Below the pieces are notes generated by a model. The model searched no databases and had not been told where the DNA came from. It worked only from the letters and a program-made list of their open reading frames with translations. A stretch of 64,000 nucleotides of DNA, from contig JBBEBM010000017.1 of the NCBI GenBank assembly GCA_040882355.1, forward strand, positions 62,001 to 126,000, in the 5' to 3' direction. Below are positions 39,992 to 44,416 of the stretch, in pieces (the first letter of the stretch is position 1; every line of letters begins with the position of its first letter). The DNA comes from Dehalococcoidia bacterium (GTDB lineage: Bacteria > Chloroflexota > Dehalococcoidia > DSTF01 > RBG-16-68-14). The position numbers and the translations under genes were made by a program.

Positions 39992-41341
39992 CTACCGGTC
40001 CGCGGCACGCTGCCAGGCATCGTAGCCGCCATCGAGGTTCATCAGATCGCTGAGCCCGGCGCGCTCGAGCAGCGATACGCCCGTTGAGGAGCGCTCGCCG
40101 TGGCCGCAGTACACGATGACAGGTCGGTCCTTAGGCACCTCCTCGATCCGGGCTGCGAGCTCGCCCAGGGGGATTGCGATGGCGTCGTCGACTCGTCCCG
40201 CGCGCACTTCCGTCGGTTCGCGCACGTCGAGCGCCACCGCGCCGTCGGCCAGGAGCCGCTGCGCCTGGCTCGCGTCGACGAGGCTGTGGTCCTGCATGGG
40301 CTTGCCGGCAGCTTGCCAGGCTGGAACGTTGCCCTGGAGCCAGCCCGCAAAGCGTTCGTATCCGACAAGCAGCGACTCGTCCGTCACGTCTTCGAGTGGA
40401 ACGTCGCCAAGGACGAAGAGCAGGTCTGTTTCAGGCGAGACCAGCCAGCCCAGCCACACGGGGTAGACATCACGAAACGGAATGCTGAGCGATCCGGGGA
40501 TGTGCGCGCGAGCGTACTCCTCCATCGTTCGGACATCGATGATCAACCCTTGGCGAGAGAGACGCTCGAAGTCGTCCGGCGACAGTGGCTTTGCTGTTGC
40601 TATCTCGGCTCGCAGGCGAGGACCGGCCTGGTTGAACGCGCGCATGCGGAAGAAGTAGTCGGGCGCGGCGGGGAACGTTGCGGGGAACCAGCGGACGAAT
40701 TCGTCTTCATCGATGGCTGCGAGCGCGGGATTGTCGCTGCGCTGCTCACCGAGCGTCGACGAACGCTCGCCGCCCGCGCCGGCCGAGCAGAACGAGCCGC
40801 CGCCGTGCGTCGGGTAGAGCAGCGTCTCGTCGGGCAAGGCGCTGAACGCTTCACGCAGCGTCCGGTACTGTTTGCGCGTGAGCTCCTCCGTGCGCTCCGG
40901 CGAGATCAAGTCCGTCCTTGCGGCGCCCCCGACGATGATGGAACCGCCACTGAACAGGACCGGCGGGCGGGAGCCTGAGCGCAGCACGTAGCTCAGGTGC
41001 TCCGGCGTGTGGCCGGGCGAAGCGATGGGTTCGATCTGGGCGCCGGCAACACGGATCGGTTCGCGCGGGCGCGCGGCCTGGTGCGGATAGCGGCACCCCG
41101 AGTCCGCCGGTACGAAGACCGGCGCATCGACCGCGTCCAGGGCTTCAACCGCGCCCGTGACGAAGTCAGCGTGGACGTGCGTTTCGAGAACGCCCGCGAT
41201 GCTCCAGCCGCGCTCTTCGGCGGCGCGGAGGTAGCGGTCGAAGGAGCGATCGGGGTCGACCAGCAGGGCGTCGCCATCGCCGACCTCGACAAGATACGAG
41301 CTGTTGCCAAGCCCCTCATGGACGAACGGTAGAACCTTCAT
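39992..41341 (-). CDS. MBL-fold persulfide dioxygenase-rhodanese fusion (CstB-like)
   Basis: THVHADF, PGHTPEH, PTHGGGSFC and two rhodanese domains (last with CGHGERS). Start MKVLPF overlaps the MFS stop. Confidence 0.9.
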   Translation of the reverse strand: MKVLPFVHEGLGNSSYLVEVGDGDALLVDPDRSFDRYLRAAEERGWSIAGVLETHVHADFVTGAVEALDAVDAPVFVPADSGCRYPHQAARPREPIRVAGAQIEPIASPGHTPEHLSYVLRSGSRPPVLFSGGSIIVGGAARTDLISPERTEELTRKQYRTLREAFSALPDETLLYPTHGGGSFCSAGAGGERSSTLGEQRSDNPALAAIDEDEFVRWFPATFPAAPDYFFRMRAFNQAGPRLRAEIATAKPLSPDDFERLSRQGLIIDVRTMEEYARAHIPGSLSIPFRDVYPVWLGWLVSPETDLLFVLGDVPLEDVTDESLLVGYERFAGWLQGNVPAWQAAGKPMQDHSLVDASQAQRLLADGAVALDVREPTEVRAGRVDDAIAIPLGELAARIEEVPKDRPVIVYCGHGERSSTGVSLLERAGLSDLMNLDGGYDAWQRAADR

Positions 41342-42612
41342 GTCGGTAGTCTCCTCTTCCTGGGCTTCGACGCCATTGTACCAGCGGCAACCAGGCCGGA
41401 CGCGATCGTCAGCGCGGCGACGGTATCGATTGCCGGCACCAGGCCGAAGACGTCCGCGATGGCGCCAGCCACGAGGGCCCCGGCTATCGCGCCTGCGTCG
41501 CGCCAGAACCGATAGACGCCCAGCGATGTAGCGCGCGCTGCGGGATGAACTGCGTCGGCGATCGCGGCCATAAGCGTTGGATACACCAAAGCCGTCCCGA
41601 CCCCCAGCAACATCACGGCCATGAGCCAGGTTGCAAACACGTCGCCCCTTGCTACGAGCAGGATCGCCGCACCTTGAACCAACATGCCACTCACCACGAG
41701 AACCCTTCGACCGAGAAAGTCGCTGGACCAACCAGCCGGGACCTGCAGCGCCCCCCACACGAGTGGGTAGGCAGCGGCCAGGATCGCCACCTGCCGTAGG
41801 CCGAGCCCGCGGCTGACGAAGAAGATGGGGAAGATGCCCCAGGCCAGCGCGTCGTTCAGATTGTTGACGAAGCCGGCTTGCGACACGCCGAAGAGTGCCG
41901 GCCGCCGCCACGTGGTCTCGGCGAAGCTTCGACGAAGCGACATGCGGGGCGCCAGATCCGGATGCTGCGCCGTCTCCAACTCGACGAACGATGCGGTGTC
42001 GCGAACGAGAAGGAGGCTCAGCGCCAACCCGCACGCGGCGAAGCCGATTCCCAGATAGAACGGCTCCGGCCGCAGGCCCCAGCGTTCCGCCATGACGCCC
42101 GTTAGGAACGCGGCCACCGCGACGGCCAGGTATCCGGCGGCCTCGTTCAGTCCCAGGGCCAGGCCGCGGCGCTTCGGTCCCACCAAGTCGACCTTCATGT
42201 TCACCGTCATCGACCAAGCCAGACCCTGGTTCAGGCCCAGGAGCACGTTGGCTCCGATGACCCAGCCCCAGCTCGGCGCCCAGATCAGGAGGAAGGGGAC
42301 CGGCAAGGCGAACAGCCAACCGGCGACGAGGACGGACTTCCGCCGATAGCGTTCGGACAGCCGGCCGGCAAACAGATTGGCGATCGCCTTGGCCAGCCCG
42401 AACGTCGCGATGAACGAGACGGCCGCCGTCTTCGACGCAATGCCGAACTCTTCCCTGGCGAGGAGCGGAACGATGGTCCGCTCTAGGCCGATCATGCCGC
42501 CGACGAAGGCGTTCACAGCCACGAGCAGCGCGAACTGCCGCCAGTTCGCGCTCAGGCCGAGCGCAACACGTCCGCCGTCGAGGCTGCCCCTCTGCAGTTC
42601 GCTCGTCGCCAA
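41338..42612 (-). CDS. MFS transporter
   Basis: LGLSANWRQF, GLERT, GRLSERYRRK (motif A) and GVYRFWRD. Start uncertain (TTG 42612). Confidence 0.9.
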   Translation of the reverse strand: MATSELQRGSLDGGRVALGLSANWRQFALLVAVNAFVGGMIGLERTIVPLLAREEFGIASKTAAVSFIATFGLAKAIANLFAGRLSERYRRKSVLVAGWLFALPVPFLLIWAPSWGWVIGANVLLGLNQGLAWSMTVNMKVDLVGPKRRGLALGLNEAAGYLAVAVAAFLTGVMAERWGLRPEPFYLGIGFAACGLALSLLLVRDTASFVELETAQHPDLAPRMSLRRSFAETTWRRPALFGVSQAGFVNNLNDALAWGIFPIFFVSRGLGLRQVAILAAAYPLVWGALQVPAGWSSDFLGRRVLVVSGMLVQGAAILLVARGDVFATWLMAVMLLGVGTALVYPTLMAAIADAVHPAARATSLGVYRFWRDAGAIAGALVAGAIADVFGLVPAIDTVAALTIASGLVAAGTMASKPRKRRLPT

Positions 42613-42632
42613 GGATTCGCTCTCATCGCCGC

Positions 42633-43418
42633 TCAGCGCGGCTTCACCCCCGCGAACGTCACGCCGCGCGTGTCGAACTCTCTCGCGTCGGACTCGTGCC
42701 TTGAGCCGGAGAAGACGTCCACCTGAGGGCCCCATCGCACATCCACAAAGCCTGTTTGGGCTAGCACCCAGCCCCACTCTGCCTCCAGCAGAGCTCCGGC
42801 TATTCAGCCTGACCAGAGGTCGATATCGTCCCTGGCGTCCTGCGGCACTTCCTTGTGGACGACGATGTCTGCGATCAGGAATCTGCCGCCGGGCTTCAGC
42901 ACCCGATGTACCTCGTTCATCACGGCCGTCTTGTCGGGACAGAGATTGATCACGCCGTTACTGATGACCGCATCAACGGACGCATCGTCAGCAGGCAGCG
43001 CTTCAGCGTAACCCTCCCGCACGTCCAGGTTGCTCAGCCCAAGCGCCCGCGCACCCGCCCGCGTCTTCTCAAGCATCGCCGGCGTCATATCGACCGCAAT
43101 GACGCGTCCGGTCAGCCCAACCTGCTTCGCTGCAAGGAGCGAATCGAAACCCGCGCCGCAGCCGATGTCGAGCACCGTTTCGCCTTCGCCGAGGCGCCCC
43201 ATCGAGAAGGGGTTTCCGGTGCCAGCGAACGAATCGACGGTGTCCCTCGGCAGCCAGTCGATGCTCTCGCTGTCATAGCCAAGCATCGCTGCGAGGGGCC
43301 GGCCTGTGTGAAAGTGAAAGCCTTTCTCGGGTTCATCCGCAACGTCGGTGTATTTCGCCTGGATCTGGCAACGCAATTCTTCGCGGTCCAGGGCCGCGGG
43401 GACCACTCGTCCTACCAT
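42633..43418 (-). CDS. ArsM-like SAM methyltransferase, putative selenoprotein (UGA at 42804-42806), with a probable 1-bp frameshift near 42732
   Basis: VLDIGCGAGFD, VDMTPAML and ISNGVINL. DLWSG*IAGALLE corresponds to the ArsM W.GC.AGA motif. GGAGG RBS before ATG 43418. Confidence 0.8.
42770..42801 (-). promoter_or_regulatory. Putative bacterial SECIS element
   Basis: UGA-AU-AGCC-GGA-GCUCUGC-UGGAG-GCAGAGU-GG-GGCU. The G-containing apical loop begins 16 nt after the UGA. Confidence 0.7.
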
Positions 43419-43624
43419 CTGACTACCTCCAACACGCCGTCCTGCGCCGGCGCCCTCTTCCGAGGCATCCCGCGCGTCGGCTCGCACCCGCTCCCAGATG
43501 TGGTCGTCGGTGCGCTCCATCTCCTGCTGGTCCCGGTCGACATGGTCGCCAGCAAATCGAGAGAGGTCGCTGTCGTCCTCACCGAGTAGCTCGTGCCCAC
43601 GCGGCAGTCGATGATTCGTGCCAT
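43412..43624 (-). pseudogene. Small DUF1059-like Cys/His protein with indels
   Basis: MARIIDC- then, after a shift near 43600, GHELLGEDDSDL...DHVDRDQQEMERTDDHIWERVRADARDA. Confidence 0.55.
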
Positions 43625-43663: not shown

Positions 43664-43738
43664 ATTATGCCCTTTAGCACGTCTGATGTCAAGTCTTCAA
43701 TTGAATAGCTTGCAAAGCGATCCTGACCGTAGTATGCT
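43664..43738. promoter_or_regulatory. Divergent sigma70 promoters with central palindrome (ArsR operator candidate)
   Basis: Minus strand TTGACA(43692-87)-N17-CATAAT. Plus strand TTGCAA(43710)-N17-TATGCT, 6 nt before GTG 43745. TTCAATTGAA at 43696-43705. Confidence 0.75.
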
Positions 43739-43744
43739 GGGCCG

Positions 43745-44416
43745 GTGAGCCATCGCACGTTCAAAGAGCGCCTCTACGGCGAGTTCGGCAGGATCGGGAG
43801 CGCCCTGGCGAGCGACAAGCGCCTTGAGCTCGTCGACCTGCTGGCCCAGGGACCCCGGCACGTCGAAGCGCTTGCTGCTGAGGCGGACATGACCGTCGCG
43901 AACGTCTCGCAGCACCTCCAAATACTCCGCCGGGCGCATCTCGTCGAAACGGACCGCGAAGGCACGCGAATCTTCTACCGCCTGGCCGATCAGAAGGTCG
44001 TCGATCTCTGGCTGTCGCTCCGCGCGGTTGCTGAAGCGCAGCTCGCTGAAGTGGGACAGCTCTCGCGCGAGTACGCATCGGATAGCGGCGACGGGGTCGA
44101 GGTGTCACGCGCCGATCTAGAGAAGAAGCTGGAGCGGGGTGAGGCCTACGTGATCGACGTGCGGCCGGAGTTGGAGTATGCGAGCGGGCACCTTCCCGGC
44201 GCCTTCTCCCTGCCGGTCGAAGATCTGCCGGAGCGGCTCCAGGAGCTGCCGCGCGACCGGCTGATCGTCGCGTACTGCCGCGGGCGGTACTGCTTGTTTG
44301 CCGACGAAGCCGTGGCCCTGCTGCGCAGTCACGGGTTCGATGCTCATCGAATGGAAGGCGGCTGGCCTGAGTGGTCGTCCGAGGGCCGGGCGAGGCAGCC
44401 GGTACAAACGCCGTAG
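43745..44416 (+). CDS. ArsR/SmtB HTH-rhodanese fusion regulator
   Basis: ANVSQHLQ.LR HTH; DVRP..EY..GHLPGA and YCRGRYC. Confidence 0.93.
   Translation: MSHRTFKERLYGEFGRIGSALASDKRLELVDLLAQGPRHVEALAAEADMTVANVSQHLQILRRAHLVETDREGTRIFYRLADQKVVDLWLSLRAVAEAQLAEVGQLSREYASDSGDGVEVSRADLEKKLERGEAYVIDVRPELEYASGHLPGAFSLPVEDLPERLQELPRDRLIVAYCRGRYCLFADEAVALLRSHGFDAHRMEGGWPEWSSEGRARQPVQTP

Follow-up and report, generated by a model that had tools for sequence, protein, structure and literature searches.

Where does a methyltransferase gene end when its open reading frame (ORF) is closed by a TGA codon and the same frame runs on beyond it? The question is raised by a locus on the minus strand of a 64,000-nucleotide stretch of DNA from a Dehalococcoidia bacterium (GenBank assembly GCA_040882355.1, contig JBBEBM010000017.1, positions 62,001 to 126,000), which as a whole we call the window, and for which a first-pass annotation had proposed that the TGA encodes selenocysteine (Sec). 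From the comparisons described below, we consider it highly probable that the locus is best explained overall as the gene for an ArsM-like, S-adenosylmethionine (SAM)-dependent methyltransferase in which codon 205 is a UGA decoded as Sec. The gene (42633..43418, minus strand) comprises 261 codons and a stop codon when TGA is translated as U, and belongs to a kind of selenoprotein that has been known since 2007; its annotated form is wrongly truncated.

The upstream ORF, whether begun at the ATG at 43520 or at the ATG at 43418, ends in ...DIDLWSG at a TGA at 42806-42804 on the minus strand, and the same frame then continues with IAGALLEAEWGWVLAQTGFVDV..., both as the first-pass annotation had described. 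The further indel that it had placed near 42732 was an error: a single unbroken frame leads from the TGA to the next stop, and the small ORF at 42633..42767 shares its frame with the upstream ORF, so that no indel is needed. Read without any shift, the 56 codons after the TGA at 42806-42804 give IAGALLEAEWGWVLAQTGFVDVRWGPQVDVFSGSRHESDAREFDTRGVTFAGVKPR and are closed by a second TGA (42633..42635, minus strand), which we take as the gene's true stop codon on the grounds that Cys-form homologues end at the aligned position and that an in-frame tail of 55-64 codons follows the Sec or Cys codon in all 21 orthologues of the close set described below. At the other end, the true start is most likely the ATG at 43418, rather than that at 43520, because a ribosome-binding site read from the sequence (GGAGG, 43426..43430, minus strand) lies 7 nt upstream of it and homologues begin at an aligned Met; the boundary at 43418 drawn previously agrees with this placement. 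Sec is therefore residue 205 of the 261-residue product, or U239 if numbered from the ORF that starts at 43520. The translated product matches class I methyltransferase domains in Pfam (Methyltransf_31 with 117 bits, and also Methyltransf_25 and Methyltransf_11).

The codon at the Sec site alternates between only two forms in the relatives of this gene. In a close set of 61 genomes (the window's own and 60 relatives) we found 21 orthologues, 14 with TGA and 7 with TGC at this position; one unpublished genome (G044) is counted only in the overall tallies of this orthologue search and of the selA co-occurrence given below. The residue that precedes the codon is Gly in all 14 close Sec forms and Asn in all 7 Cys forms. 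In a wide set, built on species-representative genomes with at least 570 relatives, the best 80 loci were examined, of which 75 were usable: 72 carry TGA and 3 carry TGC, and in 5 the motif pattern matched nothing. These loci belong to Chloroflexota (Dehalococcoidia, Limnocylindria and Anaerolineae), Gemmatimonadota, Actinomycetota, Acidobacteriota, Eisenbacteria and others. One of them (L133) comes from a cultured actinomycete, Actinomycetospora cinnamomea DSM 45771 (NZ_QEKW01000001.1), and has the TGA form.

The same alternation is visible in predicted proteins. All 12 aligned homologues of about 260 residues, 59-72% identical to the product, show Cys in this column, and all 7 aligned homologues of about 204 residues, 77-81% identical, terminate at DLWSG. 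Among the best 120 protein matches, a list that favours full-length forms because the score grows with length, 98 have the Cys, 18 end exactly at LWxx and 4 show neither pattern. The gene of the window itself is represented in protein sets by two predictions, P0002 (238 aa) and P0003 (204 aa), both cut at the Sec codon, so that the truncation by standard annotation anticipated in the first-pass annotation is found in the public sets, both here and in relatives. As to the nucleotide itself, two further runs within the same study, made on other samples, yielded contigs that cover the codon (X2, 42639-42924; X3, 42617-43117) and show 0 differences from the window. In the samples of X2 and X3, several short, deeper contigs of other organisms match only 42776-42809, that is, the UGA and the hairpin described below.

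The tail beyond the UGA evolves as a protein-coding sequence would. In the 14 close Sec forms, the median ratio of nonsynonymous to synonymous substitution rates (dN/dS) is 0.155 over tail codons +10 to +54, compared with 0.159 over the 150 codons that precede the UGA, the tails contain 0 in-frame stops compared with 26 and 13 in the other two frames, and the tail of the Sec forms aligns with that of the Cys forms. These comparisons indicate that the tail is translated and that purifying selection acts on it as strongly as on the body of the protein.

Directly 3' of the UGA lies a predicted selenocysteine insertion sequence (SECIS) hairpin (42776..42794, minus strand) with a 7-bp stem and a 5-nt loop, in which GCUCUGC (42794-42788) pairs with GCAGAGU (42782-42776) around the loop UGGAG (42787-42783); the stem begins 9 nt and the loop 16 nt after the UGA, and stem, loop and spacing are all present as the first-pass annotation had drawn them. 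The 7-bp stem is identical in all 14 close Sec forms and absent from all 7 Cys forms, with consensus folding energies of -13.4 kcal/mol and -4.3 kcal/mol, respectively. As the stem lies inside coding sequence, we also examined frozen synonymous sites: in the gene region examined, 6 of the 81 degenerate columns with a conserved amino acid use a single codon across the 14 Sec forms, and 4 of these 6 are the stem codons +4, +5, +8 and +9, columns in which the Cys forms use 2-4 codons each. Over the 73 Sec forms of the wider set, 96.5% of the stem cells are paired, 4 of the 7 stem pairs show changes on both sides (e.g., 8 sequences have G-C in place of C-G, and 5 have C-G in place of G-C), and the distance between UGA and hairpin is free of gaps in every sequence (73/73). 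We thus find a conserved and covarying stem-loop at a fixed spacing 3' of the UGA. In the locus of A. cinnamomea, the hairpin has a differing sequence (GGGCUGC...GAGGGCU type) in the same register.

Two further helices were considered around this stem. A lower stem (AGCC/GGCU), which had been proposed as an extension of the hairpin, could pair in this sequence, but lacks conservation and was rejected: 36.3% of its cells are paired in the 73 Sec forms, which does not exceed the 28-48% in controls with a slid partner. The other is a candidate small helix that would hold the UGA in a 6-nt loop (42796..42811, minus strand), with 82.7% of cells paired in the 73 sequences. It is GC-rich and has 5 pairs in the family and 4 in this sequence (alignment A5, columns 2-6/13-17); its compensation amounts to a G-C to C-G change at one pair in 4 sequences, which requires the swap of ...G-U-I-A... 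for ...A-U-I-G..., and its pairing is confounded by coding constraints. We tentatively suggest that this small helix, ahead of the SECIS hairpin, may present the UGA in its loop.

The genome to which the window belongs (3.33 Mb in 82 contigs, 93.9% complete) has the machinery that such a codon requires, as the first-pass annotation had recommended checking: a tRNA-Sec (79.5 bits), to which ARAGORN assigns the anticodon tca, and selA (570 bits), selB (322 bits) and selD (373 bits), all above their curated cut-offs. In the close set, selA scores above its cut-off in 12 of the 14 TGA-form genomes, with another of the TGA-form genomes (G003) showing a selA fragment at a contig end and a full selB; among the 7 TGC-form genomes, selA went undetected in 6. 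Since these genomes are kin, the co-occurrence is to be read as a pattern and not as a test.

Could the TGA be an artefact, a lesion, or a codon for some other residue? A sequencing or assembly error, for which we found no sign, is excluded as its source, since the contigs of X2 and X3 are identical to the window and the same codon stands in dozens of other genomes. A pseudogene, in which a nonsense change from TGC to TGA would leave only a 204-residue product (238 from the longest ORF), would account for the fact that gene callers give exactly these truncated proteins, and for a single-sequence fold that is not significant (see below). We nevertheless hold it to be very improbable: among independent orthologues, 14 of 21 and 72 of 75 have this TGA, selection on the tail equals that on the body, the hairpin is conserved and covaries in the TGA forms only, and a truncated product would lack the residue that aligns with a substrate-binding Cys as well as the strand that follows it. 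Nor is there much to be said for a UGA that is read as Trp or Cys, by near-cognate read-through or in a reassigned code. A frame that stays open and conserved past the UGA leaves, by itself, the inserted residue undefined, and to that extent fits such a reading, yet TGA is a normal stop in this genome (it is the gene's own terminator, and selA, selB and selD run without internal stops), the codon alternates with TGC (Cys) only, the TGA forms accompany selA while the Cys forms are mostly without it, and a hairpin of the SECIS type stands at a fixed spacing; we give this reading a very slight chance.

Other observations weigh against decoding as Sec or temper the case for it. Folding of the single sequence over the 71 nt around the UGA yields z = -1.15, which is not significant, so that the case for the hairpin is carried by the comparative evidence, and an Rfam search of 42600-42900 at a permissive threshold returned chance-level matches of the small nucleolar RNA type and no SECIS family. 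Within the 14 closest relatives the stem is invariant, and the covariation comes from the wider set only. There, none of 500 shuffles reaches the observed pairing and sliding the partner leaves 30-50% of the cells paired, figures that are not probabilities and overstate independence because the 73-sequence alignment consists of related, codon-aligned coding sequence. In one TGA-form genome with an intact hairpin (G030, locus L041, 93% complete) neither selA nor selB was found, which could reflect an assembly gap or a binning problem, and one TGC-form genome (G023) carries both genes. Taking these points together with the Cys and TGA forms among homologues, their conserved downstream sequence, the alignment with ArsM structures, the conserved hairpin, the Sec machinery and the TGA in independent contigs, we regard it as nearly certain that the in-frame UGA (42804..42806, minus strand) encodes Sec. 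The first-pass annotation was thus borne out on its central claim, and the TGC or TGT that would have contradicted it does not appear in the contigs of the other runs.

With the UGA decoded as Sec, the hairpin at 42794-42776, fixed at 9 nt after the codon, would act as a bacterial SECIS element. By analogy with Escherichia coli fdhF, SelB with Sec-tRNA(Sec) would bind the hairpin while the ribosome reaches the UGA, and translation would then proceed for 56 codons to the real stop at 42635-42633. In the protein, the Sec selenolate may hold or activate the methyl acceptor next to SAM, a role suggested by the place of Sec at the position of the third As(III)-binding Cys of ArsM and by the fact that the Sec/Cys column is the only one of its kind conserved in the 21 orthologues. 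SECIS elements of the E. coli fdhF type are hairpins inside the coding sequence, just 3' of the UGA and at a fixed spacing. The hairpin described here is placed in the same way and has a conserved G in the apical loop in the 14 close relatives, but differs in its short 7-bp stem and in the possible second, small helix with the UGA in its loop.

As for further selenoproteins in the window's genome, the alpha subunit of formate dehydrogenase (TIGR01591) was sought and not found in the 93.9% complete assembly, and the selenoproteome does not seem to be centred on FdhA. A genome-wide scan for UGA-interrupted frames was noisy, its first thresholds missing the target gene itself; when relaxed it gave 141 candidates, mostly antisense shadows, of which 8 were chosen by eye and 1 looked like a real selenoprotein. 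A candidate second selenoprotein lies on contig C73 (TGA at about 16108, minus strand, locus L071). It is a lipoprotein-like protein of thioredoxin fold with the sequence ...DQDT-U-VYC..., a UxxC motif, in which the match to Pfam Thioredoxin (26 bits, cut-off 23.5) spans the U, and the loop of a 7-bp hairpin begins 29 nt away, counted from the first UGA base.

If the gene encodes a selenoprotein, what kind of methyltransferase is it? ArsM enzymes have three conserved cysteines in their core that bind As(III) or act in catalysis. The best matches among solved structures are ArsM chains (5evj, E = 4.5e-30, residues 90-263), and with the canonical ArsM/AS3MT enzymes (5evj, 4fr0/4fs8, 5eg5) the protein shares the class I SAM core and the position of its Sec, which aligns with the Cys of their ...GEC(L)(A/G)GAL... 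stretch. The Cys of 'GCGNP' is T here, however, and the Cys of 'SNCVINL' is G, so that, with the Sec in place of the Cys of 'GEC.(A/G)GAL', one of the three positions is kept, as Sec. This pattern of T, G and Sec/Cys is found in all 21 orthologues, in which the motifs FAGTGNP and SNGV stand in place of the ArsM cysteine motifs and no Cys-type position other than the Sec/Cys column is conserved throughout; unlike canonical ArsM, the branch also has its own conserved GFHFHTGRP stretch in the N-terminal region. The NCBIfam model for arsenite methyltransferase, NF008823, has a cut-off of 263 bits, which the protein misses with a score of 227.3. Since two of the three aligned ArsM cysteines are missing, the first-pass label 'ArsM-like' should not be taken to mean 'arsenite methyltransferase'.

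Elsewhere, the same genome encodes an ArsM paralogue of the canonical, Cys-containing type (contig C67:7568-8389, plus strand; locus L072:569-1390). It has TGC at the site, contains the stretches CCG, GCGNP, SNCVINL and GCIAGAL, has cysteines clustered at its C terminus, and exceeds the NF008823 cut-off at 296.9 bits. A classical arsenite methyltransferase and the Sec enzyme are therefore both encoded in this genome. A search for longer homologues returned mostly two-domain proteins, several of them named arsenite methyltransferase, of which 112 of 120 fall outside the branch by a motif test and 8 of 120 carry its motifs. Four natural fusions of the branch were found, an MFS-methyltransferase (P0190, with a major facilitator superfamily (MFS) domain), a DedA-rhodanese-methyltransferase, and fusions with a fatty-acid-hydroxylase-like membrane domain and with an ICMT/PEMT-like domain; each of them terminates at DLWTG or DLWTD, and so is cut at the same codon.

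The genes around the methyltransferase in the window are those of a transporter and of rhodanese-containing proteins. Downstream follow an MFS transporter (41338..42612, minus strand, with a predicted start near 42612; Pfam MFS_1, 142.8 bits) and a metallo-beta-lactamase (MBL)-fold protein with two rhodanese stretches (39992..41401, minus strand, start likewise predicted; Pfam Lactamase_B and Rhodanese), which the GloB and Blh models match weakly. On the minus strand the MFS frame, which stops at 41338, and the MBL-rhodanese gene, whose first plausible start is at 41401, share about 64 nt (41338-41401), so that one of the two boundaries is probably misplaced. Upstream and divergent lies a regulator in which an ArsR/SmtB helix-turn-helix (HTH) domain is fused to a rhodanese (43745..44416, plus strand; Pfam HTH_5 and Rhodanese; NCBIfam HTH_metalloreg, 77.5 bits). 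The divergent intergenic region contains, by match to the consensus, a promoter-like TTGACA-17-CATAAT (43664..43692, minus strand, 11 of 12 matches). It spans about 330 nt upstream of the methyltransferase, whereas several relatives have about 100 nt there. In the stretch from the promoter-like site (43692-43664) to the start of the methyltransferase we observed a 70-codon ORF (43412-43624, minus strand) with a strong upstream GGAAGGAG, whose TAG overlaps the ATG at 43418.

Similar neighbours recur among the relatives. In the 21 loci of the close set we found the MFS transporter in 12, the MBL-rhodanese protein in 12, the ArsR-rhodanese regulator in 11 and a DUF4395 protein in 8, with DsrE and TusA genes in 3 Cys-form loci; in the 75 loci of the wide set, with flanks of 1.5 kb, the ArsR-rhodanese gene occurs in 26, MFS in 12 and DsrE in 10. 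Among the conserved neighbour clusters of the 21 close and 75 wide loci there is no arsenic-specific gene, and rhodanese, MBL-rhodanese, DsrE and TusA are found instead. We infer from this neighbourhood a link to sulfur or selenium trafficking rather than to arsenic.

Against this background, the protein could still be a genuine ArsM that uses Sec for one of the As(III)-binding cysteines and detoxifies arsenic. ArsM chains are its best structural matches, ArsM-type models are its top NCBIfam matches, the divergent regulator belongs to the ArsR/SmtB family, and reviews name the Sec family 'arsenite methyltransferase'. Yet T and G occupy two of the three ArsM Cys positions in every orthologue, the NF008823 score falls short of the cut-off that the canonical ArsM of the same genome exceeds, and the conserved neighbours are genes for rhodanese, DsrE, TusA and MBL-rhodanese proteins. 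We consider a genuine ArsM unlikely, and likewise give arsenite itself only a small chance of being the substrate; the branch probably does not methylate arsenite. That the substrate is a reactive sulfur or selenium species, methylated for export, has in our estimate about even chances, and we think it the more likely of the two because two ArsM cysteines are lost and because the neighbours are ArsR-rhodanese, MFS and MBL-rhodanese proteins and, elsewhere, DsrE and TusA. It is possible, though less likely than not, that the protein is not an arsenic enzyme but a selenium-dependent methyltransferase for sulfide, persulfide or selenide within a 'methylate and export' module, in which the ArsR-rhodanese protein could be the controlling sensor, and to which an MFS exporter and a persulfide-dioxygenase-like MBL-rhodanese protein could be coupled. 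The functional assignment is thus one that we infer from missing residues and from gene neighbourhood. Two points count against it: an ArsR-family regulator and an MFS pump would fit a metalloid system as well, and the flanks of the wide set extend over 1.5 kb only, with many contigs ending nearby.

How does the gene relate to what has been catalogued? 'Arsenite methyltransferase' (PRK11873/NF008823, motif UxxG) is listed as an established bacterial selenoprotein in two reviews, which cite Fomenko et al. (2007, Science 315:387) for it and give WP_011987699.1 as an example (PMC13188914, PMC9312934); a 2008 Global Ocean Sampling paper also mentions a Sec arsenite methyltransferase (PMC2398784), and the Dehalococcoidia are described in the BSepDB material as rich in selenoproteins. 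With the catalogued family our protein shares the fold, the Sec column (U-I-A-G, corresponding to UxxG), the alignment with the ArsM/AS3MT Cys and the downstream SECIS hairpin, whereas its branch stays below the cut-off of NF008823 and is without the two other aligned cysteines. The best-scoring NCBIfam models, which match the methyltransferase domain, are those of double selenoproteins, NF041537 (ArsM/AhpD, 233 bits), NF041536 (ArsM/DUF2284, 228 bits) and NF047649 (methyltransferase/UXPK-star, 217 bits), attributed to Haft & Tolstoy 2025 (mSystems) in a review. On these models the canonical ArsM of the genome scores lower than the Sec protein (168, 160 and 174 bits), but the Sec protein is itself far below their cut-offs (510, 575 and 460). 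It differs from the double selenoproteins in being stand-alone, with one Sec, a tail that does not match the extra domains and a second TGA that is the real stop; it ends where the Cys forms end, and does not belong to their families.

A possible functional parallel is provided by MddH, MddM1 and MddM2, cytosolic SAM-dependent S-methyltransferases of H2S and methanethiol that are described as enzymes of the UbiE/UbiG family and for which a role in the detoxification of reactive sulfur is proposed (PMC11445057, PMC12904073). Their likeness to the Sec enzyme is one of proposed role only, set side by side from descriptions; ArsM and arsenite each have 0 occurrences in these two papers, and no link is drawn from them.

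For the family, the consequences begin with annotation. Public protein sets hold the gene cut at the Sec codon, without the residue that aligns with the substrate-binding Cys and the 56 residues that follow it, and it will be miscounted wherever 'arsM' genes or selenoproteins of sediment Chloroflexota are inventoried. Across phyla the branch mostly encodes Sec; it is without the arsenite-binding cysteines and stands near sulfur-relay genes, and for these reasons its use as a marker of arsenic methylation is probably wrong. A. cinnamomea DSM 45771 offers a cultured carrier that can be used for experiments. If the sulfur or selenium reading is true, the branch would represent a widespread 'methylate and export' module for detoxification.

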